From the NCBI GenBank assembly GCA_040772385.1, contig JAXGYF010000001.1, positions 5,048,545 to 5,112,544 on the forward strand: a stretch of 64,000 bases of DNA, given 5' to 3'. The translations under genes and the position numbers were made by a program. Shown piece after piece: positions 1 through 20,724 of the stretch. This DNA is from Candidatus Vecturithrix sp. Lineage in GTDB: Bacteria; Moduliflexota; Moduliflexia; Moduliflexales; Moduliflexaceae. The notes beneath the pieces were generated by a model. It worked only from the letters and a program-made list of their open reading frames with translations, made no database searches and was not told the origin of the DNA. Each line of letters starts with the position of its first letter. Within the stretch, counting starts at the first letter, position 1.

Positions 1-1138
1 AGTCATGATACCGCCGTGATAGCCGTCAATTGCGGCCCGCAATGAGGCCAAATCTTTCGCGCTGCGTTGGCGGTACGGATCAGGATACACATCCGGCGGC
101 ACATCATTGACGATCGTGACAGAGCCTTTTTTGAGATTGAAGTTTTTCTGCCCCTCATTCGACATGCAGATTTCGAGCCAGCTTAACGCCAGTTCCGGAT
201 GCGGCGCGCCTTTGGCGAGTGGAAAGCTATCGGCATGACCAAACCACAGATCTTTGGGAATCGCGGTGGCGCTGAAGTCTTTCTCAGGCTCCATCCCAAT
301 TGCCAGGTAATATCCTAACACCCAGTCGCCCATCCAATACATCGCCGCTTGCCCGTCTTTCAGCAACGCGCCGGCTTCATCCCAGCTTTTGGTGGCATGA
401 AAGGGGTAGAAATAGGGAATCAGAGCTTTATATTTTTCCATGGCATCGCGGAAGGTCGGATCTGTTTTGAAATCGATCATTCCGGTATTGGCCTTTTCAT
501 AAAAATCCGGACCGCCAGCAGCAATCAAACACATATCGTAGGGATATGTGGCCCAGACTTTTTCCCGTGTGCCTAAAGAAATCGGAGCGATATCCGGTTT
601 GGCCTCTTTAATTTTTTTACAGGTTTCAAGCAAGGCATCATAGGTTTCCGGCGGAGTCAGTCCGAGTTCTTCAAACAGCGGTTTGTTGTACCACAACCAG
701 TTTGTACGATGCGCATTAATCGGCACAGAATAGACTTTGCCGTCAAATTTCAGGCTTTTGACCCAGGCCGGGTTAATGCGGCTTTCAAAATTGGTTTTTT
801 CCCAGAGATCGTTGATTTCTTCCAGATAGCCGGCATCAATATAACTTTTCTGCTGGTTGCCCTGATGATCCTGGAAAATATCAGGCGGATTGCCGGATTC
901 AAGATTGCCCATCAGCACCGCCAGCATATTGGCTCCACCGCCGCCAGCCACAGGATTTTCAAGAATATTCACATTCGGATGTTTTTCCTTGAATAGTTTA
1001 AAAAGTTCATCAATCGCTTCCTTCTCGCCGCCTGCCGTCCAATAATGGAAGATGATGAACTCGTCGGCCGCAAATAACTGCACGGCTCCTACACACATAA
1101 TTGCCAAAACAAGTCCGAGAATACCAAGCTTTTTCATT
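1..1138 (-). CDS. ABC transporter extracellular solute-binding protein (family 1, sugar-type); C-terminus runs off the window start
   Basis: Manual minus-strand translation from the ATG at 1136-1138 gives MKKLGILGLVLAIMCVGAVQLFAADE..., a signal peptide followed by SBP-like sequence. It is absent from the ORF track because no stop codon falls inside the window. Confidence 0.7.
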
Positions 1139-1354
1139 GCACTCCCTCCTGTTGTGCAGGTTTTTATACTTGCCTGAGCAGCATAGACGCCTGCCTGTTC
1201 TCGTTATAAAGATAATTTGACGCCGATTCTCTCCGAATGAAGAGCGTTGCATATTCTTGACCAGGGAAGGAAAAGTCTGTCAAGAAAATTTTCATTTAAA
1301 AATTCTCCATTTTCACTTGAAGCTCCTATTTTTCAGAAAGATATTTGCCAGTCA

Positions 1355-1389
1355 AAAAAACCGAGTTTTTTGGAAAAACTCGGTTTTTC
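1355..1389. terminator. Palindromic hairpin AAAAACCGAGTTTTTTGGAAAAACTCGGTTTTT (REP-type-1 family, bidirectional terminator-like)
   Basis: Perfect inverted repeat flanked by A and T runs. It is one member of a family of seven such copies in this window. Confidence 0.6.
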
Positions 1390-1392
1390 GTT

Positions 1393-2562
1393 TTATCTCA
1401 TAAAAAAGGGAAAATCCTCGGCCTGTCCGATCTGTTCCTGCCCACGTTTGCGCTGGATTTCGGTTTTGGCAGCCTTTACGGCATCCGTGCCTTCGAAGAG
1501 TTCGATCCAGTGTGAAAAGCTCACCTCTGCGCCCGGTTGGATTCGGGCGACACGTCTGCCTTCACGTTCTATTCTGCGAGGATTCGGTAAATCCGAACAG
1601 GGATTGAAGCCGGCTACATAGCCATCGCGCATTCCGCTGCAGCGTTTCCAGAGGATCGTATAGGGCAGCGTCGCAACCTGGTAACTGACTTTTGCCGCTA
1701 AATTCTCGGCAGCATTAACGAGCAGTTGGTGCGCAAAGCCGTGTTCATCCGGGCAGCCTTGCAACAGAAAGACTTGCTCAATAAATCCGGGCGTGGGGCC
1801 GGGGAAGGTGTTAAGATTTTGAATTCCGGCGGCGGCAAATTGATCGCGCGGCACAAGTTTATCGTAAGTTCCCAGAAATTGCGAACCTGCTTCCAGAAAA
1901 GGGGGGCCAAAATTGGTGTGATACAGCATTTCATATTCTCCGTCCGCGTCGCCGAGATTCGAGAGCGTATCTTCAATGCGAATCCGCGCGCGCCCTTTTT
2001 CCAGAATCAGTTGTGTGTGCAATACGTAATTGACACCGAAGACGATCTGTTCAGGAACGTCGCCCTCGATCATGAGTGTCTCATCCTGACAGCGCAGCGC
2101 AACCCGACTGGCCGGGGTCCAGCCGACTTTGCCGTGCAGGGGCAAGAAAATACGGTCGGTGTTCCCCATGTTATTGATAATTTCATCATCCCCCATAGCT
2201 CCTGACCATTCGATGCCGCAGCGATTGAGAAATTCGTTAAACCCGTAATGGCATCCACGTCCGCCCATTTCCAGCAGATGGATGTACTGCGGATGCACAA
2301 TTTCCCGTACCGGCGACTGCCAGCCAAGCGGATACGGGCCGAAACGTCCGTCAATAATTCCCATGCCGCGAGTAGGGCATACGCGCAGAGTCAGCAGGCC
2401 GTTGGAAATTTCAATCATTTCGACACCCGTCTGGCGTCCGCCGCTCAGCGTCATTTTACGGCAATAGGCTGTGTTGTCAAAGCCGAATTCAGGCCCCGGA
2501 ATGCAGAAATCAGAGGCTGAAAAAGAGGCATTAGTCTCTGTGATGATCCAAATTTTTTCCAT
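1393..2562 (-). CDS. Conserved protein of unknown function (DUF4432 / aldose-epimerase-like fold, frequently sugar-operon associated)
   Basis: 389-aa ORF co-oriented with the GH4 glycosidase and sugar-binding-protein genes. The family call rests on recall only. Confidence 0.35.
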   Translation of the reverse strand: MEKIWIITETNASFSASDFCIPGPEFGFDNTAYCRKMTLSGGRQTGVEMIEISNGLLTLRVCPTRGMGIIDGRFGPYPLGWQSPVREIVHPQYIHLLEMGGRGCHYGFNEFLNRCGIEWSGAMGDDEIINNMGNTDRIFLPLHGKVGWTPASRVALRCQDETLMIEGDVPEQIVFGVNYVLHTQLILEKGRARIRIEDTLSNLGDADGEYEMLYHTNFGPPFLEAGSQFLGTYDKLVPRDQFAAAGIQNLNTFPGPTPGFIEQVFLLQGCPDEHGFAHQLLVNAAENLAAKVSYQVATLPYTILWKRCSGMRDGYVAGFNPCSDLPNPRRIEREGRRVARIQPGAEVSFSHWIELFEGTDAVKAAKTEIQRKRGQEQIGQAEDFPFFMR

Positions 2563-2575
2563 GATGAATACCCTA

Positions 2576-2610
2576 AAAACTGGGTTTCTTCAAGAAACCC
2601 GGTTTTTTTA
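2576..2610. terminator. REP-type-1 hairpin AAAAACTGGGTTTCTTCAAGAAACCCGGTTTTTTT
   Basis: Inverted repeat with a T-tract, same family as 1355-1389. Confidence 0.6.
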
Positions 2611-2612
2611 TT

Positions 2613-3977
2613 TTAGCGAATATATCCAAGATAGTCCTGTTGATATTCAAGAATCGCGTCTAAGGCGGCCTCGGCTGCGGCCACATGATCAACCACCGGA
2701 TCGACTAATAACGCTTGCAAGGCCAATTCGCGCGAACCGGCCAGCACTGCTTCAACAGTCAAATCGTTCACTGCAACCTGATTATTGAGCAATCCCGCAA
2801 ATCCTCTGGGCAATTTCCCAAGTTTAACGCCGTGTACGCCATCTTTATCAACCGTCGCCGGAACTTCAACGACCATTTCGGATGTTAAATTCTCGATCAA
2901 ACCGTTATTGGGAATATTGACTGCCAGTTCTTCTTGATGAGAATCGGTTAAAATGCCCTCGATAATCGGGATTTCGCGCCAGTATTCAATTTCCAGGGTT
3001 CCCTTGATTCTCGATTCCGGCACTTGCTCCAAACACCATTTTTTGTAAAAGTTGTAGAAATCTAAGATGCCTTTGTGATCAACCACCGAATGCGCCCATT
3101 GGATATATTCGCCCACATGGCTGTCAGTGGTAATCGGCAGCAGTCCGAATTTTTCCAGAATCACCTTAAACAATTCGCGTTCGGCCCAGATATGCTGCCG
3201 ACTGGGAAGCCGTTCACCGCTGCCGCGTGCTGCATCCAGCATCTCTTTCATCGCGCCCAGATTTTCATAAGATTGTTCCGGCAGACGCTCAAAATAGGCC
3301 GGAGCTTTGGCGCGGATTTCAGGATACGCGTCTTTGTCTGTATCTTTATAGATCGCTTCGAGCAGCACGCTGAAATGATTCAATCCGCCAGCCTTGATCT
3401 GAAGATTCTTCCAGGGTGTGTTTAAAATTTTCGGCAAGTGTTCCATTAAAGAAACGACTTCATGACACAAGCCAACGACTTTGAGTTCAGGGAATTTACG
3501 TGAAATTGCCAGACAGATACGGGTCATAGGGTTGCTGAGATTGAACAAATAGGCTTCTGGACAAAGTTTCTGAATGTCGCTGCAAATCTCAAGAATCGGG
3601 GGGATAATTCGCAAAGAATGGAATAATCCGCCAGGGCCGCCGTTTTCGCCGTACACCTGATGAATACCGTATTGCAGCGGGATTTTCCAATCCTGTTCCC
3701 ACAATTCATAACGGTTGCCGATTTCAATGGCAAGAATGCAAAAATCCGCTCCTCGCAGTGCTTCCTGCCGCGAAGTCGTCGCAACCAGGGTATATTGAAG
3801 TTGATTGTCTTCCATATATCGCCGGGCAATCCTCTCAACTTTGCTCAGAGCCTGTGGATTAATATCGTGCAGCACGACTGTACTGCCTTGCAACGCTTTG
3901 TTTTTGAAAATATTACCGACTGAACCAAGTCCAAACATTGCGCTTCCTGCGCCAATCAGAACAATTTTATTGCTCAT
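2613..3977 (-). CDS. Glycoside hydrolase family 4 (NAD+/Mn2+-dependent alpha-glucosidase / alpha-galactosidase / 6-phospho-glycosidase type)
   Basis: N-terminal Rossmann motif MSNKIVLIGAGSAMFG and the GH4 GLCHEV Cys-His motif. Start is placed at the ATG 3977-3975, which has an upstream GGGG/AGAGG RBS; the ORF track gives a longer 4010 start. Confidence 0.85.
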   Translation of the reverse strand: MSNKIVLIGAGSAMFGLGSVGNIFKNKALQGSTVVLHDINPQALSKVERIARRYMEDNQLQYTLVATTSRQEALRGADFCILAIEIGNRYELWEQDWKIPLQYGIHQVYGENGGPGGLFHSLRIIPPILEICSDIQKLCPEAYLFNLSNPMTRICLAISRKFPELKVVGLCHEVVSLMEHLPKILNTPWKNLQIKAGGLNHFSVLLEAIYKDTDKDAYPEIRAKAPAYFERLPEQSYENLGAMKEMLDAARGSGERLPSRQHIWAERELFKVILEKFGLLPITTDSHVGEYIQWAHSVVDHKGILDFYNFYKKWCLEQVPESRIKGTLEIEYWREIPIIEGILTDSHQEELAVNIPNNGLIENLTSEMVVEVPATVDKDGVHGVKLGKLPRGFAGLLNNQVAVNDLTVEAVLAGSRELALQALLVDPVVDHVAAAEAALDAILEYQQDYLGYIR

Positions 3978-4106
3978 GATTTTTCCCCTCTTAGAAAGAT
4001 TGTTAAACACTACAACAGATTTGAAAATAGAATGAATGTCTTTACTATAATACTTTGGGACTGAAATTCATATTAACAAAGCGTGTCGGATAATAGTTCC
4101 CCAAAA

Positions 4107-6521
4107 CTAAATTACGTGTTCGGTACGAGCGATAATATCATCTTGCGTATCCGGCGCTAAGGTCGTGAAAAATGCGGAATATCCGGCGACGCGCACGATC
4201 AGATCGCGGTATTGCTCAGGGTGCTTTTTGGCGTCGAGCAGCGTAGCGCGATCCACAATATTATACTGCACGTGCCAGCCTTTTAAATCAGTGAAAAACG
4301 TGTGCAGCATCGCAATGAGCTTTTTCTTCTCCTGCTCTTGTTTGATGGCGGTCGGCGACAATTTCTGATTCAAGAGCACACCGCCTAAAATCTTGTTGGT
4401 CGGGAGTTTGGCAATTGACTTAAAGACCGCTGTAGGGCCGAGTTCATCGGTGCCTGAAGAGGGCGAACTCCCTTCAGCCAGGGGTTGAAAGGCTTTTCTA
4501 CCGTCTGGCGTAGCCGGGACAACCGCTCCGGATGGCACATTCGCGGAAATACTTGAGGTTCCGGCGTAATACCGACAGCCAATCGGGCCGCGTCCGTAGC
4601 GCGTGGTGTGATATTTTTTAAGCTCATTGATATAATCCATGTAGGCTTCACGCAGCAAAATATCCACATAATTCTCATCATTGCCGAATTTGGGCGCGTA
4701 ATTCAGCAGAATTTGCCGCACTCTTTCCCCTTCAGTTTTTTCAAAATTGGTTTCCAGATGGCGCAGGAGTTCCGCTTTAGAAATTTTCTGTTCCTCAAAT
4801 ACCAGCTTTTTGATGGCTGCCAGAGAATTGCCGAGGTTCGCAATGCCGACTTGTAAGCCGGAGATAAAATCATATTTTGACCCGCCTTCTTTGATGGTTT
4901 TGCCTCTTTTTAAACAATCATCCACAAAAGCCGAACAAAGAATATCAGGCACTTCTTCCTCTAGGATCGTATCCACAGCCGTATCAATCGCCACACCGGC
5001 CCGGGCGTAATATTTAACCTGTTGCTGCCAGGCTCGCAACACATCATCAAAGGACTCGAAGTCAGTTAATTTCCCACGTCCTTTCTTAAAGGTATTGCCA
5101 GACATAGTATCTTTCCCGTCATTCAGGGCTGCGAGCAACACACGCATAAAGTTCAAAAAATGCATCCCGGTGCAGCGATAGCCCCATTTACCAGGTACAG
5201 CCACCTCAATACAGCCGATTGCAGAATAATTATACGCATCTTCTTTGTCAACTCCAAGTTTAAGAAAAGAAGGGATCACAATTTCATCATTGTTAAAGGC
5301 CGGCATTCCAAAGCCTTTTTCAATGACTTGCAGACATTCGAGCATAAACTCGTCGCTGATATGCTTATGATAGCGAATTGAGAGATTCGGCTGTGTTAAT
5401 TTCGTTTCGCCTACTGAGCGCAGAATAAGATAACTAAGTTCATTTACTGCGTCTTCACCAGTAACGGTTTGGCCGCCGATGGTCACGTTTTGATATAACG
5501 GACTTCCCGCGGAAAATCGGGTATGGGACCAGGAGCGAATCTTCAAAAAGGAAAGAAGTTTGATCCAGGTATTTTCTAACAATTCCATGACAAAATCATC
5601 CGTGATTTTTTCCTCCTGTTTATCCTGTTTATAGAAAGGATAGAGATATTGATCCATGCGTCCCAGGGAAACGGAATGGCCGTTACTCTCGATTTGCAGC
5701 ACAAGTTGGATAAAATAAGCCAGTTGCAGGGCCTGGTAAAAATCTTGCGGCGGATACTGTGCAATCTGGCGGCAGTTTTCATGAATTCTGATCAATTCGG
5801 CTTTGCGTTCTGAATTGTTCTCCTGTTCACTCATAGAAAGGGCGAGTGCGGCGTAACGATTGATAAAATCGCACAAAGCGCGTAAGCTGATTTCCACGGC
5901 CTGATAAAACTGCGCTTTTTTGAGATCCGCCCAATCCGTCAGGTCGAGTTGTTTACGTTTAAATTCCACTTTATCCAGATACCCCTGGATGCCGAGTTTC
6001 AGGATTTTTTCAAAATTGACCGCAATATGCCCATCGCCTGAGGTTAAATTGCCTTCAGCGCGGATGATGCCGGCCGCATGGATCTCGCGCAGCGTGTCCG
6101 TCATCAGTTCCCGTCCCTTTTCCAGTGTGGTTTTTCCGTGCCAATAGGCGCAAATCTCTTTTAATTCCTCTTTGGTTTCCTCTGAAAGATAAAAGGCATC
6201 GCCGGGACGTTTGTCAAATTCATCCAGTTCTTTGAGAATCCATTCAACCGCATATTCGGGAAAAATCGGCGCGGCTCTCAATTTTGACGATTGATTGCCC
6301 ACAATCAATTCGCCGCCATCAATAAAAACAGTCATTTCCTGCAAGGTTTTTTCCAGCGCGAACGCACGTCTGAGAATGACCGGTTTCGCCGCGTGCTGCT
6401 GGTAAGCTTCAGTATAAAATCGGGCGCGTTCGGTGCAGACCGTGGGTCTGGCGTTTAACACCTGTTCGCGTAGAGTGTGAATACGTGTTGATAAACCTGG
6501 TTTGGTAGCAATGTGTATCAT
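4107..6521 (-). CDS. Glycyl radical enzyme, pyruvate formate-lyase superfamily, dehydratase/lyase clade (CutC / glycerol-dehydratase / HypD-like Cys-x-Glu active site)
   Basis: 804 aa. The C-terminal glycyl radical motif RVAGYSAFF is present. A single catalytic Cys in GCIEVAVPG, rather than the CC pair of PFL, points to the dehydratase/lyase clade. The cognate activase gene lies just upstream. Confidence 0.9.
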   Translation of the reverse strand: MIHIATKPGLSTRIHTLREQVLNARPTVCTERARFYTEAYQQHAAKPVILRRAFALEKTLQEMTVFIDGGELIVGNQSSKLRAAPIFPEYAVEWILKELDEFDKRPGDAFYLSEETKEELKEICAYWHGKTTLEKGRELMTDTLREIHAAGIIRAEGNLTSGDGHIAVNFEKILKLGIQGYLDKVEFKRKQLDLTDWADLKKAQFYQAVEISLRALCDFINRYAALALSMSEQENNSERKAELIRIHENCRQIAQYPPQDFYQALQLAYFIQLVLQIESNGHSVSLGRMDQYLYPFYKQDKQEEKITDDFVMELLENTWIKLLSFLKIRSWSHTRFSAGSPLYQNVTIGGQTVTGEDAVNELSYLILRSVGETKLTQPNLSIRYHKHISDEFMLECLQVIEKGFGMPAFNNDEIVIPSFLKLGVDKEDAYNYSAIGCIEVAVPGKWGYRCTGMHFLNFMRVLLAALNDGKDTMSGNTFKKGRGKLTDFESFDDVLRAWQQQVKYYARAGVAIDTAVDTILEEEVPDILCSAFVDDCLKRGKTIKEGGSKYDFISGLQVGIANLGNSLAAIKKLVFEEQKISKAELLRHLETNFEKTEGERVRQILLNYAPKFGNDENYVDILLREAYMDYINELKKYHTTRYGRGPIGCRYYAGTSSISANVPSGAVVPATPDGRKAFQPLAEGSSPSSGTDELGPTAVFKSIAKLPTNKILGGVLLNQKLSPTAIKQEQEKKKLIAMLHTFFTDLKGWHVQYNIVDRATLLDAKKHPEQYRDLIVRVAGYSAFFTTLAPDTQDDIIARTEHVI

Positions 6522-6554
6522 AATTATCTTCCCTCAATATTTTCCCCTCATCCC

Positions 6555-6800
6555 TCCCAGGAGCTGACAGGAATAGGTATTTTGTGCTGATGCCTCGTCC
6601 GGCCCAGCCATCAATGGCCGGTCTCAAAGCTGAAGCAGGCTGAAGCCCGCTCCCAAATTCCACAGGACGCTTCGGCGTCCTTCAACGTTGAGACTGGCGA
6701 TTGATCGCCAGGAGACAAGGCACACGAGTTTGCCCCTCACGTGATACCTACCCCTGGCAGCCTCCCAGGAGGCAGGGCTGTTAAGTTCTAAGACCTCACC
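6555..6800. repeat. Repeat family A intergenic element (contains near-palindrome CTGGCGATTGATCGCCAGG and GCTGAAGCAGGCTGAAGCCCGCT)
   Basis: Related copies occur at 20725-20885, 31745-31835, 35925-35965 (partial) and 37120-37215. This copy sits between the GRE-activase and GRE genes. Confidence 0.7.
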
Positions 6801-6816
6801 CCCGGCCCCTCCGAGA

Positions 6817-7710
6817 TTATCCTCCTATCATGACAATAAGCCCCTTGTTTTTGGCGTATTCAACGTAAGATTGTATTTCGTCTTCTGACACTGAGGCGGC
6901 CGGAAGGTCGTAGGTTCGGCCTAACAGTGCGTATTTCTGTCGCCCCAGAGCATGATAGGGGATCAAATGAACTTCGTGAATATTGGTCAACGAGGCAGCA
7001 AAGTCAATAATAGCGCACATTTCAGTTTCGCTATGGTTAAATCCAGGAATGACCGGAATGCGAGCGACAACCGGAACCTGCGCTGTTTCCAACTGCTTGA
7101 AATTCGAGATGATCAGGTCTAATCTCCCTCCGGTTGTAGTCTGAAATTTTTCAGGATCAGTATGTTTCAGGTCTGCCAGAAACAGATCGATATATTGGAG
7201 ATGTCTTTCGATCTGTTGCCAGGGCACGTGCAGACAGGTTTCCACGGCAACATGAATATCTAAGTTTTTGAGCTGCGGCAGTAATTCCGATAATATCTCC
7301 GGTTGGGCAAACGGTTCACCCCCGGAAACGGTCACTCCGCCGCCGCTTTTGCTGTAAAACGGAAGGTCTTTGCTGATTTCTGTCAGGATGTCCGTCACGC
7401 TCTTCTCTTCGCCGATCACCGTAATCGCTTTCGATGGACACACATCGTTAAAGGCGAAAGGCTGTTTGAGATGGTCGCGTTGCAGTCTGACCTGTCCATT
7501 ATCATTTATAAACTCCTGAAACTGTGAATGCTGGACGCATTCGAGACAGCCAATACATTTACGCGGTTCGAACATGAGATCATAGCCAAAAGATTGACTT
7601 TCAGGATTACTGCACCAGGAACAGCGCAAAGGACAGCCCTTGAAAAAGATCACCGTGCGAATGCCTGCGCCGTCATGCGTGGAAAAGCGTTGAATATTAA
7701 AAATCATCAA
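6817..7710 (-). CDS. Glycyl-radical enzyme activating enzyme (radical SAM)
   Basis: The CPLRCSWC CX3CX2C motif lies near the N-terminus, and a Gly-rich SAM motif GGGVTVSGGEP is present. The 297-aa size fits a GRE activase. Confidence 0.9.
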   Translation of the reverse strand: MMIFNIQRFSTHDGAGIRTVIFFKGCPLRCSWCSNPESQSFGYDLMFEPRKCIGCLECVQHSQFQEFINDNGQVRLQRDHLKQPFAFNDVCPSKAITVIGEEKSVTDILTEISKDLPFYSKSGGGVTVSGGEPFAQPEILSELLPQLKNLDIHVAVETCLHVPWQQIERHLQYIDLFLADLKHTDPEKFQTTTGGRLDLIISNFKQLETAQVPVVARIPVIPGFNHSETEMCAIIDFAASLTNIHEVHLIPYHALGRQKYALLGRTYDLPAASVSEDEIQSYVEYAKNKGLIVMIGG

Positions 7711-8122: not shown

Positions 8123-9028
8123 ATGAGAGAATTACTTATTCTGTTCGGGGCCTTGATTGGGTGGATACTTGGCTATGTTTTCCAACTCTATATACCCAAA
8201 AAGAGGAGAGAAAAAGGATTGGATCTCCAAAGGGAACTTGAAGAAGCCAAAGAGACGAATCGCCGCCTTGAAGCCCGACTCAGCCAATATCACAACCTGG
8301 AAGAACAACTCAATACTTGCAAAACCCAACGACAGCAGCAAACTGAAGAACTGGAAAATGTTCGCGCGAAACTCACCTCAGCCGAAGCACAGATTGCAAC
8401 CTTACAACAAGGGATAGCTTCCCTGGAGCAGAGAATTGAAACAGAAACACCAGCCTCTCCGGCAGAAGTCTCGCCGGAGATTAAGACGCAAACGCCTCCA
8501 ATAGAAACCTTTTTGGACATTGGAACGACAATTCCCACAATAGTTGAACGAGAAACTCCGCAAGACGTTGAAGTCGAAACGGTCTCTCCCGAAGTTGAAA
8601 TACATGTCCCTGAGAAAGTTCAATCAGAAACTACACCAGCCGAAACCTCGCAAGCGGTTATAGCAGAAACGTTGTTCGAAGACTCATCACCAGCGACAGA
8701 CGTAGAAATACCTTCAGAAGACATTCACCCGGAAAGCGAATCGAAATTATCGCGTTCAACTCCTGAAAAACCGGATAATCTTCGTAAAATTGAAGGAATT
8801 GGCCCCAAAGTTGCTCAACTCCTGAATGAAGCCGGCATTTTGACTTTCGAACAGCTCGCGCAAACCGAAAGCGACCGTCTACGAACTATTCTGGAAGAGG
8901 CCGGAGGTGTCTTTAAAGCCATGGATCCGGCAAGCTGGCCCGAACAAGCAGGTTTAGCTGCGAAAGGTGATTGGGAAGCGTTGAAAATCCTGCAAGACCA
9001 ACTCGACGGCGGACGCTATAAATCCTGA
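8123..9028 (+). CDS. Membrane-anchored coiled-coil protein with a C-terminal helix-hairpin-helix-like domain
   Basis: An N-terminal TM helix is followed by a long acidic coiled-coil and low-complexity region. The C-terminus carries an HhH-like motif, LRKIEGIGPKVAQLLNEAGILTFEQLA. A GGAGG RBS lies upstream. Confidence 0.5.
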   Translation: MRELLILFGALIGWILGYVFQLYIPKKRREKGLDLQRELEEAKETNRRLEARLSQYHNLEEQLNTCKTQRQQQTEELENVRAKLTSAEAQIATLQQGIASLEQRIETETPASPAEVSPEIKTQTPPIETFLDIGTTIPTIVERETPQDVEVETVSPEVEIHVPEKVQSETTPAETSQAVIAETLFEDSSPATDVEIPSEDIHPESESKLSRSTPEKPDNLRKIEGIGPKVAQLLNEAGILTFEQLAQTESDRLRTILEEAGGVFKAMDPASWPEQAGLAAKGDWEALKILQDQLDGGRYKS

Positions 9029-9165: not shown

Positions 9166-10167
9166 GTGACTATGAAAAAATTCATCAATGATCCGGCGAA
9201 TTTGACACGGGAACTGTTGGAAGGGTATTGCCTGGCTTACCCTGATAAGGTTGCTCTCAAATCGGAAAAGCTCGTGGTACGAGCAACTCCCAAGCCAGAA
9301 GACAAAGTGGCGATTGTGACGCTCGGCGGGGCCGGCCATGAACCGGCGTTGAGCGGATTTGTCGGTGAAGGTATGCTGGATGTGAGTGTGGTCGGCGATA
9401 TCTTTGCCGCCCCTGGACCGCCCAAAGTACTCGAAGCCCTGCGCATGATGAACCGGCCGGCCGGAGTCTTGCTTGTGGTGCTCAACCATGCCGGCGATGT
9501 GATGAGCGCAAATATGGCGATGCAGATGGCAAAAAAAGAGGGATTGAACGTCAAAATGCTTCTCACGCATGAAGATATTGCGCCGGGCCTTGATGCACCG
9601 GCTGAAGATCGCCGCGGACTTGTCGGGTGCGTTCCGTTGTATAAAATCGCCGGAGCCGCAGCAGAGGCTGGAAGATCCCTGGAAGAAGTTTATGCGTTGG
9701 CCGAACGTTTCAATCAGAATATGGCGACCCTGTCCGTGGCATTAAAAACTGCCACTCATCCGGTTTCAGGCGAATATATCTCCACCCTGGAAGAGCATGA
9801 AATGGAAATCGGCATGGGGCAGCATGGCGAAGGCGGCGGCGGACGTATGAATGTCAAAACAGCAGATGAAACCGCTGAAATCATGCTGGAAAAACTGCTC
9901 AAGGCTATTCAGGCCAGACGCGGCGATCAAGTCTTTGTGATGCTGAACGGCAGCGGCGCAACCACCTTAATGGAGATGTTTATTGTCTATCGTCAGGTCA
10001 AACACCTGCTGGATCAGAAAGGCATTGAAGTGGTTGATGCAATGGTGGATGAATATCTGACCGTGCAGGAAATGGCCGGCTTCCAGATGTTCGTGGCTAA
10101 GATGGATGATGAATTGACAGTGTTGTTACAAGCGCCGTGCAATACCCCTTACTGGGTCGTGCGATAG
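9166..10167 (+). CDS. dhaK: Dihydroxyacetone kinase, DhaK subunit (Dak1 domain)
   Basis: A Dak1-like sequence with a GGGH-containing motif (LGGAGHEPALSGFVGEGMLD). It has a GTG start with a strong AAGGAGGG RBS. Confidence 0.8.
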   Translation: MTMKKFINDPANLTRELLEGYCLAYPDKVALKSEKLVVRATPKPEDKVAIVTLGGAGHEPALSGFVGEGMLDVSVVGDIFAAPGPPKVLEALRMMNRPAGVLLVVLNHAGDVMSANMAMQMAKKEGLNVKMLLTHEDIAPGLDAPAEDRRGLVGCVPLYKIAGAAAEAGRSLEEVYALAERFNQNMATLSVALKTATHPVSGEYISTLEEHEMEIGMGQHGEGGGGRMNVKTADETAEIMLEKLLKAIQARRGDQVFVMLNGSGATTLMEMFIVYRQVKHLLDQKGIEVVDAMVDEYLTVQEMAGFQMFVAKMDDELTVLLQAPCNTPYWVVR

Positions 10168-11211: not shown

Positions 11212-11448
11212 TGCCGGGTTAAGCATACGCTCATTGATACTGCTCAAGGAATCAACCTGTCATTCTGCCTAATCGTGTCAACAAGAATGTATGCGAAAAT
11301 TATGACGACGCGCCGTGAAAACTTTCTTGACATGCGATGGCTTTTGTTATTCATCATTCGCAGAAGATGACATCATTTGCTTGGCATGGTATCTGTTTGG
11401 CGATGCCGTGATTTATAATCCTTGTTTCCAAAAGAAGAGGAAAGCATC

Positions 11449-12096
11449 ATGAAAACTGTGATTGATATTGAAGATCTAAAGCGGATGGTCAATGGCGCGA
11501 TTGCCCAAATTCGAGCGCAGCATGCGTACCTGTCGTCCTTAGACGCTGCAATTGGCGACGGAGATCACGGTACGACTATTTTGCGCGGCATGAATAATCT
11601 GGCCAATGTGCTGGAAACCACCTCAGCCAGCGATTTGAAAAGCTTGCTCTCTGAACTTGGCTGGTCTTTTTTGGGCGTTGATGGCGGCGCTTCGGGACCC
11701 TTATTGGGCAGTTTCTTGTTGGGAATGTCAGAAGCGGTTGGTGAACAGATGACACTGGATTGTCAGGCTTTTGCCGCGATGTTCGCCGGCGGATTGGCCT
11801 CGATTCAGCAGCAAACCAGAGCCAAAGCGGGCGATAAAACCTTGCTCGACGCGCTTATTCCGGCTGTTGAAGCCCTGCGCAATGCCGCTGCCGATGGTGA
11901 TCGCATTCTTACAGCTTTGCAAAACGCCGTCAACGCCGCCGAAGCAGGCGCAATCGCCACCAAAGAGATGCAGGCGCGGATGGGCAGGGCTAAAAATCTG
12001 GGAGAACGTGCCATCGGACACCAGGACCCCGGAGCAACCTCAATAGTCTTAATTTTCAAGGGTTTTTTGGAAGGATTGTCACAACCACCACAATGA
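11449..12096 (+). CDS. dhaL: Dihydroxyacetone kinase, DhaL subunit (Dak2, ADP-binding)
   Basis: A Dak2-like sequence with DAAIGDGDHGTT and LGVDGGASGPL motifs. The start is placed at the ATG with a GAGGAAAG RBS; the ORF track gives a longer 11422 start. Confidence 0.8.
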   Translation: MKTVIDIEDLKRMVNGAIAQIRAQHAYLSSLDAAIGDGDHGTTILRGMNNLANVLETTSASDLKSLLSELGWSFLGVDGGASGPLLGSFLLGMSEAVGEQMTLDCQAFAAMFAGGLASIQQQTRAKAGDKTLLDALIPAVEALRNAAADGDRILTALQNAVNAAEAGAIATKEMQARMGRAKNLGERAIGHQDPGATSIVLIFKGFLEGLSQPPQ

Positions 12097-13532
12097 TCAT
12101 CAATTCAAGTTTACGAACAAAGATTTCTTTTGCGGTCGGATTGGTTATTTTTATTGTGCTGGGAACAAGCACCTTTGTTCATATTCAACAGTTAGAACGG
12201 GATTATCTGCAAGCGGTTGAATGGCGCGCTGAAGCTCTGTCGCAGGGGATTCTCAACCAGATTATGAACAACCAGGAATATGATCCGAAGTATTATATTC
12301 ATAATCCCGGCCTGTTAGGCGTGTTTTCGTTGCAATGTATGCAATTATATGAGCGCAATAGAGCGCAGAATGTCGCGCATATCAGTATTATTAATGCGGC
12401 CAACGTCATCGCGGCGCATAACGACAGAAACCTCTGGGACACCCCGATAGAGAATGCTCTGCTCCGTGAGAGTCTTGAGCGGCAGGAATTAGTGACTGTC
12501 CTCGCCGGAAATACCTATCATACCCTTGTGCCGATTGTGTGGAATCGAAATATTTATTTGGGAAGCATTGATATTGGGTTTCCCAAGCAGGTCGTTGACC
12601 GCAAAGCGCGGGAATTGATGATGAATTCGGCGATCTTATTCTGTATTTATTTGATTATGGCGGTTTTTGCCAGTTCGACCCTCATGCATATCATGTTGAG
12701 AAATATCAGTCGTATTCGCCAGGGGATCGAAACGCTGTTTCAGGATCCTACCTATACTCTGCCGCCGGTGAAAGGGGAATTCAATGTGATTGTCGAAAAG
12801 ATTAATGAATTAGTTACTAATGTAGCGGCAATGAAAAAATATGAAGACGAGCTGGAGAAACGGGAACGTATGGCGGTGCTAGGCGAGATGGCCCTGGGCG
12901 TGGCGCATGAGATTAAAAATCCTCTCACCTCAATCAAAGGTTTTACCCAGATGTTGCAGCGCACAGCCCCGGACAATGCCAGAACAGTCAAGTACCTGGA
13001 TTTAATCGACGCGGAACTCAATCGGGTCAATAAGCTGCTGAATGAGCTGCTTGTGTATGGAGGCCGGACGTCATTACAATTCACAGAGGCAGATCTGGAA
13101 CAGATTATTTCGGAATTCATTGATAAATTACACATAAACCATCCCCAAATCCGCGTGAAGAAACGTCTGCAAGGACAAAACTTTCGGGTACGGCTTGATA
13201 AGCACAAAATGATTCAGGTCTTTGATAATCTGCTCAATAACGCGGTTGAGGCCCTGAGCGAGAGAGAGAAGCCAGTGATTGGCATTTTTATGCAGGCGCG
13301 AGAAACAGGCGTGACAATTACTTTTATGGATAATGGCTGCGGCATTCAGACCGCCTATCTTGACAAGGTGCTGCATCCCTTTTTCACCACCAAACCAAAC
13401 GGCTATGGCTTCGGATTGGCGATTTCCTATAAAATCCTTGAACAACACGGCGGTAATTTGCAATTGTTTTCGCGTGAGGCGTGCTATACCAAAATTGTCC
13501 TCACGCTGCCAAAATGTCAGGCCCAAAAATGA
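12093..13532 (+). CDS. Sensor histidine kinase (two N-terminal TM segments, HisKA + HATPase_c)
   Basis: The H-box HEIKNPLTSIKGF is followed by N, G1 and G2 boxes (NLLNNAVEA, DNGCGI, GYGFGLAIS). It overlaps the dhaL stop by 4 nt. Confidence 0.8.
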   Translation: MIINSSLRTKISFAVGLVIFIVLGTSTFVHIQQLERDYLQAVEWRAEALSQGILNQIMNNQEYDPKYYIHNPGLLGVFSLQCMQLYERNRAQNVAHISIINAANVIAAHNDRNLWDTPIENALLRESLERQELVTVLAGNTYHTLVPIVWNRNIYLGSIDIGFPKQVVDRKARELMMNSAILFCIYLIMAVFASSTLMHIMLRNISRIRQGIETLFQDPTYTLPPVKGEFNVIVEKINELVTNVAAMKKYEDELEKRERMAVLGEMALGVAHEIKNPLTSIKGFTQMLQRTAPDNARTVKYLDLIDAELNRVNKLLNELLVYGGRTSLQFTEADLEQIISEFIDKLHINHPQIRVKKRLQGQNFRVRLDKHKMIQVFDNLLNNAVEALSEREKPVIGIFMQARETGVTITFMDNGCGIQTAYLDKVLHPFFTTKPNGYGFGLAISYKILEQHGGNLQLFSREACYTKIVLTLPKCQAQK

Positions 13533-13616
13533 TCCTACGTGAGTTGTGTCATGACACTTCGACTCCGCTCAGTGTCCGGAGCGGGGGTCGAGACATAAAT
13601 CATTCAGGATGTCTAT

Positions 13617-14957
13617 ATGAAATATAAACTGCTGATTACAGATGACGAACAGAGCGTCAGAATTTTCTTAAAAGATCTGTTTCTTGAGGAAGGATTTGAT
13701 GTCTGTGAAGCCAAAGATGGCAAAGAAACCCTTGAGGCCGTCAGAAATGACGCGCCGCATATTATTATTCTTGATCTTAAACTTCCGGATTTGAATGGCC
13801 TGGAGTTGATTTCACAGATCAAAAAAGAGCAGCCGCTTGCCGAAATCATCATTATTACAGCCCTGGGCACAGTCGAAAATGCGGTGAAAGCGATCAAATT
13901 CGGCGCGTATGATTTTATCACCAAGCCTTTTGATATCGAAACGATTCTGATCGTGGTCAAACGCGCGGTGGAATATATCACTGTCAGCCGCGAGAATATT
14001 GCGTTAAAGCAGTTACAAAAAAATAAAATCTATTTTGAGGAATTTATTGGGGAATCCGAAGAGATTCGCACTATTAAAAATCTGATTGTCAAACTCGCGC
14101 ACACGGACGTGCCTATTCTGATTACGGGGGAAACCGGGACAGGGAAAAATATTTTAGCCCAGCAGATTCATTTTACCTTATCGGCCCATGAAACGCCGCT
14201 GGCCTATATCAATTGCCCCGGGATTCCCGATTCGCTGTTTGAATCGGAATTTTTCGGACATGAAAAAGGGGCCTTTACCGGCGCAAATACCCAGAAAAAA
14301 GGACGTATTGAGGAAGCGCGCGACGGCACGTTGATTCTTGATGAAATCTCAGAGCTGCCCCTGAGCATTCAAGCCAAACTCTTAGATTTTCTACAAACCA
14401 GGAATTTTTACCGGGTCGGAAGTAATCACCAGATTTCGCTCAAAACCCGGGTTGTTGCTCTTTCGAATAAAAATCTTCAGGCCGAGATCGAACAAGGACG
14501 ATTTCGAAAAGACTTGTTGTATCGTTTGAATGTGATCCATCTGCACATCCCCCCGCTGCGGGAGAGAACTGAGGACATCATGCTGTTCGTCGAATATTTT
14601 TTGAAAACTTTCCGCAAACGGTATGCCAGGAACATCAGCGGAATTTCGGATTCCTGTCGACAGCTTCTGTTGAATTATCCCTGGCCGGGCAATGTGCGTG
14701 AATTGAAAAATGTGCTGGAACGCGCCTGCATTGTGTGCGAACATCCGATCATTGATGAACATGCCATCATTTTTGAAACCTCGCATCAGCAGTCAGCACC
14801 AAAAGATTTGAAGAACTTGATGAACGCTTATGAAAAACGTCTGCTGATTCAAGCCCTGGCCCGACATAATGGCAACCGGGTGAAAACCTCGGAAGAATTG
14901 CAGATTTCTCTGCGAAATTTGCACTATAAATTGAGTAAGTATCAGATTAGCGGCTAG
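13617..14957 (+). CDS. Sigma-54-dependent response regulator (REC + AAA+ sigma-54 activator + Fis-type HTH), NtrC family
   Basis: A REC domain with a DLKLPD phospho-acceptor region is followed by Walker A GETGTGKN and a GAFTGA-like segment. The C-terminal HTH region matches the NtrC-family layout. Confidence 0.85.
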   Translation: MKYKLLITDDEQSVRIFLKDLFLEEGFDVCEAKDGKETLEAVRNDAPHIIILDLKLPDLNGLELISQIKKEQPLAEIIIITALGTVENAVKAIKFGAYDFITKPFDIETILIVVKRAVEYITVSRENIALKQLQKNKIYFEEFIGESEEIRTIKNLIVKLAHTDVPILITGETGTGKNILAQQIHFTLSAHETPLAYINCPGIPDSLFESEFFGHEKGAFTGANTQKKGRIEEARDGTLILDEISELPLSIQAKLLDFLQTRNFYRVGSNHQISLKTRVVALSNKNLQAEIEQGRFRKDLLYRLNVIHLHIPPLRERTEDIMLFVEYFLKTFRKRYARNISGISDSCRQLLLNYPWPGNVRELKNVLERACIVCEHPIIDEHAIIFETSHQQSAPKDLKNLMNAYEKRLLIQALARHNGNRVKTSEELQISLRNLHYKLSKYQISG

Positions 14958-14990
14958 TGCAAGTTTTTGCACGTCATGGTGCAAGATTTT
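14947..14990 (+). promoter_or_regulatory. Candidate enhancer (UAS) for the sigma-54 regulator: TGCAAG / TTGCAC...GTGCAA half-site palindromes
   Basis: TGCAAGTTTTTGCACGTCATGGTGCAAG lies about 120 bp upstream of the -24/-12 element. This arm pattern is typical of NtrC-family activator sites. Confidence 0.4.
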
Positions 14991-15107
14991 TCGTGATGAT
15001 TTCCAGACAACGAATCTTTCGGAAAAAATCATGTTGCATCCATTTTTCTTGACAATAAGGGGAAATATTCCACATCAATAATCGTTATTTGTGCTACGGA
15101 GTTCCTG

Positions 15108-15123
15108 TTGGCATAATGTTTGC
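15108..15123 (+). promoter_or_regulatory. Sigma-54 (-24/-12) promoter TGGCATAATGTTTGCT upstream of the lactate permease gene
   Basis: GG and GC fall at the canonical spacing of TGGCAC-N5-TTGCW. The site is about 110 bp upstream of the ATG at 15232, and the adjacent gene encodes a sigma-54 activator. Confidence 0.55.
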
Positions 15124-15152
15124 TTTCTGTCATAACGTTGTGTCATAAAACA

Positions 15153-15187
15153 AGAAACCAGGTTTTTTTGAAAAAACCTGGTTTCTC
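15153..15187. repeat. REP-type-1 hairpin AAGAAACCAGGTTTTTTTGAAAAAACCTGGTTTCTC, here in a 5' leader
   Basis: Palindrome of the same family, located between the sigma-54 promoter and the lactate permease start. Confidence 0.55.
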
Positions 15188-15231
15188 CTTTGATTTGTCC
15201 TGCTCACAAGATAAACAAAAAATAAAGGAGG

Positions 15232-16932: not shown

Positions 16933-16946
16933 TGTGATTTTTGGGT

Positions 16947-16978
16947 AAAAACCGAGTTTTTTCAAAAAACTCGGTTTT
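16947..16978. terminator. REP-type-1 hairpin AAAACCGAGTTTTTTCAAAAAACTCGGTTTT
   Basis: Palindrome directly after the lactate permease stop codon. Confidence 0.6.
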
Positions 16979-16989
16979 ATACGTATCAA

Positions 16990-17017
16990 TGACAATTTTA
17001 TTTTATGAGAATTGTCA
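16990..17017. promoter_or_regulatory. Operator-like palindrome TGACAATT-N12-AATTGTCA upstream of etfB
   Basis: Perfect 8-bp inverted arms in the etfB leader, adjacent to a family B repeat. Confidence 0.3.
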
Positions 17018-17039
17018 TGAGTTTACGATCGCCCGACAT

Positions 17040-17111
17040 CATGAAACTACAGGGATTTCACATAAGCACGGATAACACACTCTTGCTTATGAGTGTGATC
17101 CTTGTAGTTTC
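17040..17111. repeat. Repeat family B stem-loop element
   Basis: GAAACTACAGGGATTTCACATAAGCACGGATAACAC...CTTGTAGTTTCAC, ending just before the etfB start codon. Confidence 0.65.
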
Positions 17112-17126
17112 ACAGGAGAAAACTTT

Positions 17127-20682: not shown

Positions 20683-20724
20683 TTGAATCATCTGATGTAC
20701 TCCACCCCGGCCCCTCTCCAAAGG

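Follow-up and report, generated by a model that had tools for sequence, protein, structure and literature searches.

The closest described relative of the locus considered here is the "anhydroglycolysis" of Escherichia coli, which depends on the glycyl radical enzyme (GRE) YbiW and its activase YbiY (Ma et al., JACS 2024, doi 10.1021/jacs.4c07718; summarized in PMC13450708 and PMC12441222). As outlined in section 5.7 of PMC13450708, YbiW is a 1,5-anhydroglucitol-6-phosphate C–O lyase whose product is 1-deoxy-fructose-6-phosphate, and a crystal structure with bound glycerol exists. The B12-independent glycerol dehydratase (GDH) of Clostridium butyricum, DhaB1/DhaB2 (1r8w/1r9d), and the propanediol dehydratase of Roseburia (5i2a) share the GRE fold and the Cys-x-Glu eliminase-type loop, with a context of diol metabolism or microcompartments. 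In the bacterial levoglucosan pathway, LgdA/B1/B2/C, an anhydro sugar is cleaved by C3 oxidation, C1 beta-elimination, hydration, and reduction, according to the account in PMC7676230. This stepwise chemistry equals what a GH4 enzyme does within one active site, although the proteins differ, being of the Gfo/Idh/MocA type and xylose-isomerase-like barrels.

The locus belongs to Candidatus Vecturithrix (candidate phylum KSB3) and stands at the start of the window, i.e., the 64-kb stretch of DNA that was analyzed. A sequence-only reading had placed five genes on its minus strand in the order activase, GRE, GH4, DUF4432, and sugar-binding protein, and all five were found at those sites: a YbiY-like GRE-activating radical SAM enzyme of 296–297 amino acids (6817..7710); a YbiW-type GRE of 804 amino acids, predicted to be a 1,5-anhydrohexitol-6-phosphate C–O lyase (4107..6521); a GH4-family NAD+/Mn2+ enzyme of the non-phospho "CHE" type (2613..3977); a DUF4432 protein of 389 amino acids with an aldose-1-epimerase fold, of the Asn320 subfamily (1393..2562); and the first 379 amino acids of a glucose-type CUT1 ABC substrate-binding protein (SBP; 1..1137), an SBP_bac_1 gene interrupted by the window edge. 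Two terminator-like hairpins lie on the same strand. One (2575..2607), between the GH4 and DUF4432 genes, consists of GGGTTTCTTGAAGAAACCC with a T-run behind it, and the start codon of DUF4432 comes approximately 20 nt later; the other, a strong one (1356..1388), is 3' of the DUF4432 gene and is separated from the binding-protein gene by promoter-like hexamers upstream of the latter. Because these hairpins stand 3' of GH4 and DUF4432, one transcript for the cluster is not assured, and they may split it into separate transcripts.

The activase and GRE genes are 295 bp apart (6522..6816), while the spacer is just 2–6 bp in three relatives (L003, L027, and L029). The repeat element noticed earlier at this point, which sets the locus apart from E. 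coli YbiW/YbiY, proved to be a palindromic multi-copy repeat (MITE/REP-like) with 40-nt inverted arms at 6607–6646/6669–6708 and outer 18-nt arms at 6563–6580/6744–6761. Further copies in the 64-kb window (20726–20880, 31733–31826, 35945–36002, and 37116–37217) are 74–86% identical and match on both strands.

The activase matches TIGR02494 with 340 bits (cutoff 174) as well as PF04055 and PF13353; its CX3CX2C radical SAM cluster motif is formed by Cys26/30/33 and its auxiliary cluster cysteines are Cys52/55/58/91. The GRE scores 687 bits with PF02901, 113 bits with PF01228, and 1026 bits with TIGR01774, and far under the cutoff of each of the NCBIfam equivalogs HpsG, HypD, and CutC. In phmmer comparisons with the PDB, YbiW gave 1033 bits (8id7/8yjn) and 1045 bits (6xs4), with much lower values for GDH (643), propanediol dehydratase (572), PflD (517), CutC (469), and HypD (428); identity is 58% to E. 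coli YbiW and 39% to PflD. By sequence, YbiW is its nearest characterized relative by far, and in view of this close resemblance the enzyme is not expected to be a glycerol dehydratase. The Cys-x-Glu, non-PFL type assigned earlier is confirmed by a single Cys loop, G436-C437-I438-E439, in which C437/E439 align with C441/E443 of YbiW; the glycyl loop, RVAG780YS, also equals that of the E. coli enzyme. The insertions YGRGPI and RCTG are common to both and differ from GDH, and the positions of GDH D447 and Y640 are G452 and S656, as in YbiW; the equivalents of GDH H164, H281, S282, and Y339 are kept. The predicted identity of the pocket with that of YbiW rests on these motifs. Ten YbiW-like GREs, drawn from four phyla, have 348 of the 804 columns invariant; the window lineage has just nine changes of its own, and one of these, S454H, close to the Cys loop, was counted against the main reading. 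The N-terminus has no extension relative to YbiW, in line with the earlier statement that an encapsulation peptide is lacking. The proposed role as a dehydratase or diol enzyme acting on an aglycone was not upheld: the GRE is closest to a ring-opening C–O lyase/isomerase, and in the phylogenetic placement named as a check, it groups with YbiW.

The GH4 enzyme possesses both domains of its family (PF02056, 163 bits; PF11975, 127 bits), in common with the alpha-galacturonidase LplD of B. subtilis (3fef), AglA of T. maritima (1obb), and the MelA type of E. coli. Translation more probably begins at the ATG at 3977 (454 amino acids, good RBS) than at the GTG at 4010. The motifs GAGS (9–12), C171-H172-E173, H201, and TDSH (284) supply the GxGS NAD site, the Cys171/His201 metal ligands, and the D-x-H motif shared by GH4s of non-phosphorylated substrates, and the C-H-E motif is as in LplD, the only full-length match among solved structures; identity to any solved member is only approximately 25–30%. 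Among NCBIfam models, that of the MelA-type subfamily scores highest, with 285 bits, below its cutoff of 486. A 32-residue insertion (aa 234–265) is conserved in DUF4432-paired GH4s and missing from unpaired relatives and from the LplD, AglA, and MelA types; beyond it, paired and unpaired members differ little. The unpaired GH4s are 65–69% identical, and their neighbors, GH65 and Opp-type transporters, suggest ordinary disaccharide hydrolysis.

The DUF4432 protein matches PF14486 with 257 bits and PDB 3ty1, a hypothetical aldose 1-epimerase from Klebsiella of the same family, with E=4e-58. Both mutarotase histidines, H143 and H215, are kept, but the catalytic Glu of the L-E-P motif of aldose 1-epimerases is an invariant Asn (N-P-C-S-D) in the GH4-linked subfamily. 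N320, R102, H105, and D324 occur in all 56 of 56 subfamily members, the last three being specific to it, while position 320 is Glu in 45 of 45 outgroup members. Judged by these residues, the protein is not a normal mutarotase, its catalytic Glu being replaced by Asn320.

The binding protein matches PF01547 with 139 bits. Its full-length orthologue in a related locus (L025) is 95% identical and best matches glucose-binding proteins of T. thermophilus (2b3b, 176 bits) and Pseudomonas, so that it is assigned by similarity to the glucose (monosaccharide) clade. This clade is neither a disaccharide nor a glycoside type and does not support the glycoside pathway proposed earlier. In L025, the order is activase–GRE–GH4–DUF4432–SBP–two permeases–ROK–DeoR, and the part from SBP to DeoR recurs in L008. 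Similarly, another KSB3 locus (L027) has activase–GRE–ROK–DeoR–CUT2 ABC, and L030–32 have DeoR–ROK–GRE–CUT2 ABC–activase. Across the L025, L027, and L030–32 settings, ROK is 46–65% and DeoR 47–74% identical, and both accompany YbiW-type GREs in other phyla too. For the window locus, ROK and DeoR lie outside the window and are predicted from relatives with 89–96% protein identity. Given the importer and kinase in these relatives, a DeoR-regulated combination of ABC uptake and ROK kinase would replace the PTS of E. coli. Homologues of FsaA/FsaB, GldA, and YbiV, another difference from E. coli, were found neither in the 64-kb window nor in any related locus, which leaves the later half of the pathway unseen.

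The GH4 and DUF4432 genes are adjacent in 14–15 of 16 loci from five phyla, with DUF4432 placed immediately behind GH4, and a YbiW-type GRE with its activase lies within 10 kb of the pair in six of the 16. Pair and GRE point the same way in KSB3 and toward each other in Spirochaetota, and we estimate chance co-location of the pair with such a GRE at approximately 1% per locus; recurrence in two phyla with differing gene orders speaks for the functional link between GH4/DUF4432 and GRE suggested earlier. Approximately 20 kb separate GRE from GH4 in Ca. Vecturithrix granuli UASB270, which has an Opp-type ABC upstream of GH4. In L023, SBP, permeases, GH4, and DUF4432 are contiguous and co-oriented. 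In six loci that lack a GRE, the pair stands under LacI together with TRAP/MR_MLE/DUF4867 or M24 genes, a setting that the main reading does not explain. GH4–DUF4432 is a two-gene module linked to the GRE yet separable from it. In L009, a levoglucosan-dehydrogenase-like (LgdA-like) gene adjoins GH4, and in L008 the neighbor of GH4 is a xylose-isomerase-like TIM-barrel gene, a likeness to the levoglucosan pathway.

On the strand opposite the GRE cluster, dhaK (9166–10167) and dhaL (11422–12096) are separated by mtnN and adjoin a lactate-utilization cluster. They are split and within 5 kb of the cluster, as had been pointed out, but they recur in 0 of 15 related loci, which does not support a role in the pathway. 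The statement that no shell genes are nearby is true only for approximately 17 kb, but a microcompartment locus lies at 24.8–35.9 kb of the same window.

Taken as a whole, the gene identities and the GH4/DUF4432–GRE link of the sequence-only reading were supported, but its glycerol/diol dehydratase pathway was not. With somewhat better than even confidence, we see the locus instead as an anhydroglucitol-type catabolic regulon with an embedded GH4/Asn320-DUF4432 module, the core GRE pathway being drawn from strong homology and the upstream steps from relatives. Through the activase, the GRE would gain its radical at G780; as in E. coli, a 6-phosphorylated 1,5-anhydrohexitol is expected as substrate. 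C2 of 1,5-anhydro-D-glucitol-6-phosphate, or of a compound very much like it, would lose H to the C437 thiyl radical, E439 would remove the 2-OH proton, and the C1–O5 ring bond would break. The product, 1-deoxy-fructose-6-phosphate, would be split by an aldolase encoded elsewhere into glyceraldehyde-3-phosphate and hydroxyacetone. A glucose-type ABC importer would begin at the cut binding-protein gene and continue with two permeases beyond the window, where a ROK kinase would also make the 6-phosphate and DeoR would act as repressor. The GH4 module may use NAD+ oxidation at C3, C2 deprotonation, and C1 elimination to cut a C1–O bond in a glucose-sized substrate supplied by the SBP importer; levoglucosan or another small or intramolecular glycoside is a candidate, as is 1,5-anhydroglucitol with O5 leaving. 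The ROK kinase of the regulon would then phosphorylate the product of the module. Asn320-DUF4432 probably works with GH4, or on its product, at C1/C2.

The position of the pair between the GRE and the importer/kinase genes could also mean that GH4 and Asn320-DUF4432 prepare a GRE pro-substrate from a glycoside, which we consider unlikely. The pair would hydrolyze a glycoside of 1,5-anhydroglucitol, or the GH4 lyase would skip water addition and yield 2-hydroxyglucal (the enol of 1,5-anhydrofructose), to be ketonized by the partner and passed on to a reductase, then to the ROK kinase, and finally to the GRE. A Gfo/Idh/MocA dehydrogenase and a GMC oxidoreductase adjoin the pair in Spirochaetota loci, and the remodeled DUF4432 active site suggests C1/C2 chemistry without an anomeric OH; however, at least nine loci have the pair without a nearby GRE or ROK, GRE-less loci include Gemmatimonadales and Planctomycetota, lineages not expected to use GREs, and thousands of YbiW-type GRE contexts are without GH4. 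The monosaccharide-type importer, the KSB3 operon without a reductase, and the small difference between paired and unpaired GH4s beyond the insertion also argue against it. Ranking next, and distinctly unlikely, is a redundant route: GH4 and its partner would handle the same substrate as the radical enzyme in an NAD-dependent way that tolerates oxygen, and the ether ring of unphosphorylated 1,5-anhydroglucitol would be opened or hydrolyzed to glucitol or 1-deoxyfructose, or anhydromannitol epimerized to anhydroglucitol via a 3-keto intermediate. The levoglucosan pathway, as described in PMC7676230, is a precedent for such oxidation–elimination–hydration–reduction of an anhydro sugar. The canonical GH4 steps would be feasible with ring O5 as the sole leaving group on C1, the pair is kept in taxa without a GRE while anaerobes have both, and the pair shares the glucose-type importer. 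Against this, we know of no GH4 enzyme that cleaves a ring ether, one operon rarely holds redundancy, no polyol dehydrogenase was seen nearby, and the LacI/TRAP/MR_MLE setting is left unaccounted for.

It is improbable that the genes are neighbors by coincidence, the GRE regulon merely adjoining the pair in a sugar island; GH4 would then be a plain alpha-glucosidase or alpha-galactosidase that acts on an unrelated disaccharide, and DUF4432 an accessory protein, either sugar-binding or epimerase-like. Public annotation of close homologues as alpha-galactosidase or alpha-glucosidase, the sub-cutoff MelA-type match, the GH65 and Opp-type ABC genes of unpaired relatives and the latter in UASB270, and the hairpins that set the genes apart would fit; but two phyla, each with its own gene order, came to have the pair next to a YbiW-type GRE, the ROK/DeoR and importer genes that go with the GRE are interleaved with the pair, and the DUF4432 partner is without the mutarotase base. 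The model of the sequence-only reading, in which GH4 hydrolyzes a glycosyl-glycerol-like glycoside, the GRE dehydrates the aglycone, and DhaKL handles C3 products, could draw on the Cys-x-Glu loop with the four conserved GDH residues, on the glycerol-bound YbiW crystal (PMC13450708), and on the nearby dhaK and dhaL. It is contradicted by the YbiW-type phylogenetic placement of the GRE, and the bit scores, the Gly/Ser replacements and YbiW-specific insertions, the glucose-type importer, the absence of dhaKL from every related locus compared, and conserved partners that are a ROK sugar kinase and DeoR rather than 1,3-propanediol or aldehyde dehydrogenases make it very improbable indeed.

In Candidatus Vecturithrix, the favored anhydroglucitol-type regulon reads as one for glucose analogues blocked at C1, and its novelty would lie in the tightly conserved GH4–DUF4432 gene pair, foreign to the E. 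coli YbiW/YbiY system, that is embedded inside the operon of an otherwise YbiW-like anhydroglucitol system.

The five genes lie on the minus strand between positions 1 and 7710, in the order reported by the sequence-only reading. The glycyl-radical enzyme (GRE) activase (7710..6817) comes first, followed by the GRE of 804 amino acids (6521..4107; PF02901, 687 bits; PF01228, 113 bits), the GH4 protein of 454 amino acids (3977..2613 from its most likely start; PF02056, 163 bits; PF11975, 127 bits), the DUF4432 protein (2562..1393; PF14486, 257 bits), and a family-1 sugar ABC binding protein (SBP; 1137..1), whose gene runs past the window edge. For each of the five, the predicted family is beyond doubt from its Pfam and NCBIfam scores. 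The activase and GRE genes are separated by a 295-bp spacer (between 6817 and 6521) carrying a palindromic repeat, and because this gap is just 2-6 bp in relatives, the repeat is an insertion, as had been proposed. Copies of this repeat family were found at 6563-6761, 20726-20880, 31733-31826, 35945-36002, and 37116-37217; they are 74-86% identical to one another with matches on both strands, are built of inner inverted arms of 40 nt and outer inverted arms of 18 nt, and include two copies in or beside a microcompartment locus. Rfam gave no matches on the whole window. Terminator-like hairpins follow GH4 (2582-2600, within 2575-2607) and DUF4432 (1356-1388) on their 3' sides, and promoter-like hexamers stand upstream of GH4 and of the SBP gene, so the five genes may be transcribed as more than one unit. 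Both hairpins share the form AAAAAC-CGRG-TTT...AAA-CYCGG-TTTTT, symmetric on both strands, and may represent a small repeat family of bidirectional terminators or RNA-stabilizing elements.

The GRE has the glycyl radical motif RVAG780YS at its C-terminus and a PFL-like fold according to PF02901/PF01228. Its best matches among all solved structures are E. coli YbiW (8id7 and 8yjn) and the YbiW orthologue 6xs4, at 1033-1045 bits, compared with 643 bits for the glycerol dehydratase (GDH) of C. butyricum, 572 for propanediol dehydratase, 517 for PflD, 469 for CutC, and 428 for HypD. The GRE shares 58% of its residues with YbiW and 39% with PflD; PDB 8ID7 is the complex with 1,5-anhydroglucitol-6-phosphate (AG6P). 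Alignment revealed motifs common to the GRE and YbiW on every active-site strand, comprising TSGDGH, ESNGHSVS, AGSPLYQNVTIGGQ, GFGMPAFNNDE, IGCIE..GKWGYRCTGM, YGRGPI, and YYAGTSSISANVP; the two enzymes also have in common insertions of 2 and 6 residues that are absent from GDH. When ten YbiW-like GREs were compared (KSB3, Spirochaetota, E. coli, and a widespread metagenomic type), 348 of 804 columns proved invariant, and the window lineage stood apart at no more than nine positions. Basic residues common to YbiW-like and PflD-like GREs were uninformative as markers of a phosphate site, all of them being conserved in GDH too. Metagenome contigs scanned with the GRE returned only two loci. The single Cys-x-Glu loop noticed earlier is present, with C437/E439 aligned to YbiW C441/E443, whose roles are taken from published work (PMC13450708). 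YbiW is a C-O lyase that converts AG6P to 1-deoxyfructose-6-phosphate, and PflD carries out the same reaction on the mannitol epimer (PMC13450708; PMC12441222).

The sequence-only reading had proposed that the GH4 enzyme hydrolyses a glycoside and that the GRE then dehydrates a glycerol or diol aglycone. The 643 bits to GDH against 1033 to YbiW speak against a role as a B12-independent glycerol/diol dehydratase. So does the HMMER alignment, in which D447 and Y640 of GDH, which bind glycerol at its distal hydroxyl, correspond to G452 and S656 in the window GRE. Firm placement of the GRE in a non-dehydratase clade was the result that the proposal itself had named as telling against it, and with the YbiW placement the dehydratase reading fails. 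The GRE is a further member of the known YbiW family, predicted to be an AG6P C-O lyase and not a glycerol or diol dehydratase. Sulfoquinovose, the sulfonate of which could mimic phosphate, was considered as a substrate and dropped, since neither the ROK sugar kinase of the related loci nor conservation at the level of YbiW agrees with it, and sulfoglycolysis genes did not turn up.

Membership of dhaK/dhaL in the system was rejected. The dhaK (9166-10167) and dhaL (11422-12096) genes are indeed close to the GRE operon, on the opposite strand and with an oppositely oriented mtnN gene between them, but they recur in 0 of 15 related loci and adjoin a lactate-utilization cluster (12093-23523, plus strand). 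This cluster, just downstream of dhaK/dhaL, is governed by a two-component sigma-54 system and encodes a histidine kinase, an NtrC-type regulator, the L-lactate permease LctP, EtfB, EtfA, an LDH-like FAD-linked oxidase, the lactate racemase LarA, and a DctP-type binding protein. Between the activase and dhaK, a plus-strand gene (8123-9028), divergent from the activase, encodes a membrane-anchored protein of 301 residues in which a coiled coil and a Pro/Glu-rich linker precede a helix-hairpin-helix domain at the C-terminus, and its position is kept in Candidatus Vecturithrix granuli UASB270. The statement that shell genes are absent nearby holds next to the GRE, the nearest being 24 kb off, but not for the window, which contains a microcompartment locus at 24.8-35.9 kb. 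Situated at 24804-35917 (plus strand) and preceded by a DeoR gene (23715-24542, minus strand), this locus is of a sugar-phosphate-utilizing type without a GRE; it has two PduA-like BMC-H genes (30458-30769 and 31410-31715, plus strand), four EutN-like BMC-P genes (31815-32437 and 33975-34519, plus strand), a CUT2 sugar ABC transporter, and an SDR. A weak BMC domain marks a further protein of 210 residues in the locus, and its enzymes include an aldehyde dehydrogenase, an N-terminally extended RpiB, and an aldolase of the DeoC family. The GRE has neither of the marks of a GRE-associated microcompartment, namely adjacent shell genes and an encapsulation peptide, the latter having been correctly described as absent since the protein does not extend beyond YbiW at its N-terminus. 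A link between the microcompartment and the GRE operon was dropped, the locus being at least 17 kb away, of a different type, and equipped with its own importer and regulator. Apart from the UASB270 position of the 8123-9028 gene, neither this gene nor dhaK/mtnN/dhaL, the lactate cluster, or the microcompartment locus recurs beside the GRE or the GH4-DUF4432 pair in related loci. Farther along, the window encodes an 801-residue, defence-like STAND-type NTPase (41709-44114, plus strand; NB-ARC/NACHT with TPR) having an N-terminal Effector-associated domain 8.

The probable continuation of the operon past the window edge is seen in homologous loci of other genomes and contigs. The whole operon is preserved in L025 as activase-GRE-GH4-DUF4432-SBP-permease-permease-ROK-DeoR, with proteins 89-95% identical to those of the window, and UASB270 (L008) has GH4-DUF4432-SBP-permease-permease-ROK-DeoR; over the two loci, identity is 89-96%. 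UASB270 is the best match among named genomes (GH4 96%, SBP 95%, and DUF4432 90% identical). The GRE cluster closest to the window GRE, at 93% identity, has members assigned to Candidatus Vecturithrix sp. or granuli, and the window accordingly comes from candidate phylum KSB3 (Modulibacteria). In UASB270 (L033/L008, DF820480.1), activase-GRE is on the same scaffold as GH4-DUF4432-SBP-ROK-DeoR, about 20 kb away, and the DNA separating GRE from GH4, which the window genome does not have, contains an Opp-type ABC system and, directly upstream of GH4, a xylose-isomerase-like TIM-barrel gene. For GREs 70-72% identical to that of the window (type P0147, 108 contigs), the commonest setting is DeoR-ROK-GRE-monosaccharide ABC transporter-activase; a KSB3 MAG (L027) has activase-GRE-ROK-DeoR-ABC, and ROK/DeoR are also found beside the GRE in L030. 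Across these settings, the ROK kinases are orthologous at 46-65% identity and the DeoR regulators at 47-74%. The closest solved relative of the SBP is the T. thermophilus glucose-binding protein 2b3b (176 bits), followed by Pseudomonas glucose-binding proteins (5xpj, 5dvf, and 8hqq; 112-136 bits), with oligosaccharide binders at 78 bits or less; by these scores, it is a CUT1 protein of the glucose-binding clade.

This conserved ROK, DeoR, and importer context, together with the glucose-clade SBP, suggests that the operon core is an anhydroglucitol pathway working without a PTS. In it, the importer would bring in a glucose-sized sugar, the ROK kinase would phosphorylate it at the 6-position, and the GRE would open the ring by radical chemistry. 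In the E. coli AG6P pathway, by contrast, a PTS supplies the 6-phosphorylated sugar, and the FsaA/FsaB aldolase and GldA are encoded nearby; tblastn of the E. coli proteins FsaA, FsaB, GldA, and YbiV gave no match at E<=1e-4 in the window and L001-L025 (E. coli loci excluded). Neither the aldolase nor the hydroxyacetone reductase of that pathway thus turned up in the DNA searched; such neighbors characterize the pathway and not the enzyme. L029 (2164-7787) and L024 (369-7335) each have an additional GRE near the YbiW-like one; it is PflD-like, with 49% (L029) and 43% (L024) identity to the E. coli enzyme. The additional GRE of L029 is grouped with a ROK kinase, a Zn-dependent alcohol dehydrogenase, and an activase of its own, and that of L024 with a CUT2 ABC transporter, a pattern suggesting that systems for anhydroglucitol and anhydromannitol occur as a pair, as they do in E. 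coli.

In GH4 catalysis, a bound NAD+ oxidizes C3, C2 loses a proton, the substituent on C1 is eliminated, water is added, and C3 is reduced again; the phospho-glycoside members of the family bear a C-D-M-P or C-N-V-P signature after the metal Cys. The window GH4 retains the NAD site (GAGS, 9-12), the metal ligands C171 and H201, and a C-H-E motif, so it looks catalytically competent. Its metal-Cys motif, G-L-C-H-E-V, resembles G-C-C-H-E-V of LplD and differs from the 6-phospho enzymes 1s6y and 6dux; the phospho-glycoside signature is not present, which places the protein, on its motifs, in the group acting on unphosphorylated substrates. The closest characterized GH4 is only about 30% identical, and the NCBIfam alpha-galactosidase subfamily model gives 285 bits against a cutoff of 486. 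GH4s paired with a DUF4432 gene have an insertion of 32 residues (aa 234-265), in which SYENLGA is conserved to at least 95%. Chloroflexota GH4s of 65-69% identity lack this insertion; apart from it, just two conserved positions set them off, and they are unpaired in both of the contexts examined. The DUF4432 partner (PF14486) matches PDB 3ty1 at E=4e-58. Its homologues divide between a close-knit subfamily, with identities of 52% or more, and distant proteins at 42% or less. The mutarotase histidines H143 and H215 are invariant, whereas position 320 is Asn (N-P-C-S-D) in 56/56 GH4-linked members and Glu (mutarotase L-E-P motif) in 45/45 outgroup proteins and in 3ty1. Replacement of this catalytic Glu, along with R102, H105, and D324, which are invariant and specific to the GH4-linked subfamily, makes it unlikely that the partner is a mutarotase.

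The DUF4432 gene directly follows a GH4 gene, 70-96% identical to that of the window, in 14-15 of 16 subfamily loci, which are distributed over KSB3, Spirochaetota, Planctomycetota, Gemmatimonadales, and Armatimonadota. A YbiW-type GRE and its activase are within 10 kb of the pair in six of the 16, co-oriented and upstream in KSB3 (window, L003, and L025) and convergent and downstream in Spirochaetota (L009, L023, and L024). Two arrangements in two phyla, interleaved with the kinase, regulator, and importer of the GRE, argue for a functional link between pair and GRE. The two modules are nevertheless separable: in six loci, the pair is under LacI, with MR_MLE, TRAP, and DUF4867 genes or a Peptidase_M24 gene and without a GRE, and most YbiW-type GREs have no GH4 nearby. 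At about 8600-16300 in L006, L017, and L018 (Planctomycetota/Oceanispirochaeta), the pair heads a LacI-controlled operon with a TRAP transporter, DUF4867, and an enolase-superfamily dehydratase that resembles GalD and matches 2ox4 and 2o56 best in the PDB. This setting implies an acidic substrate or product; L015 has the pair and DUF4867 only, at a contig end. In the Planctomycetota loci, the annotated neighbors of the pair gave no clear hint of a substrate. In Spirochaetota (L009, 3003-8436; L023, 1080-3418), a ribulose-phosphate-3-epimerase-like protein and a GMC oxidoreductase are encoded beside the pair and GRE, and L009 additionally has a Gfo/Idh/MocA enzyme next to GH4 resembling levoglucosan dehydrogenase (237 bits to 6a3f); these accessory enzymes possibly add steps in 3-keto or 2-keto anhydro-sugar chemistry. 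A literature search found no paper on the GH4-DUF4432 gene pair.

The glucose-type importer, the levoglucosan-dehydrogenase-like neighbor in L009, and the xylose-isomerase-like barrel in L008 lead us to favor a role of the pair on a glucose-sized, C1-blocked sugar, with a product accepted by the ROK kinase. Such a role may take several forms. The pair may convert a parallel substrate, levoglucosan or a small glycoside, to glucose; it may process the same substrate as the GRE by a non-radical route, in which ring O5 is the leaving group and glucitol or 1-deoxyfructose results; or it may be a feeder producing anhydrofructose or anhydroglucitol, which, as an obligate arrangement, is disfavored by the separable distribution of the two modules. 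All three leave the LacI/TRAP/MR_MLE setting unaccounted for. In a more far-reaching reading, GH4 and the Asn320 pseudo-mutarotase would constitute an unrecognized two-protein NAD-dependent anhydro-sugar system, either an oxygen-tolerant hydrolase or isomerase opening the ring of 1,5-anhydroglucitol or levoglucosan or a glycoside lyase of GH4 type making anhydrofructose, a proposal that we regard as speculative and rather improbable.

The glucose analogue 1,5-anhydroglucitol is widespread, yet a radical-based route for its catabolism was reportedly described only in 2024, in E. coli. Here, a YbiW-type enzyme is found in a wastewater phylum without cultured members, and the place of the PTS is predicted to be taken by an ABC importer and a ROK kinase together with a DeoR regulator. 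The strongly conserved pair of GH4 and an altered mutarotase accompanies this pathway in two phyla and is the part that deserves experiments; solving its role would correct the current annotations as alpha-galactosidase, aldose 1-epimerase, and formate acetyltransferase and could reveal new NAD-dependent chemistry on C1-blocked sugars. If the two-protein system proved true, bacteria would have a route that either parallels the YbiW pathway without radical chemistry or feeds into it.
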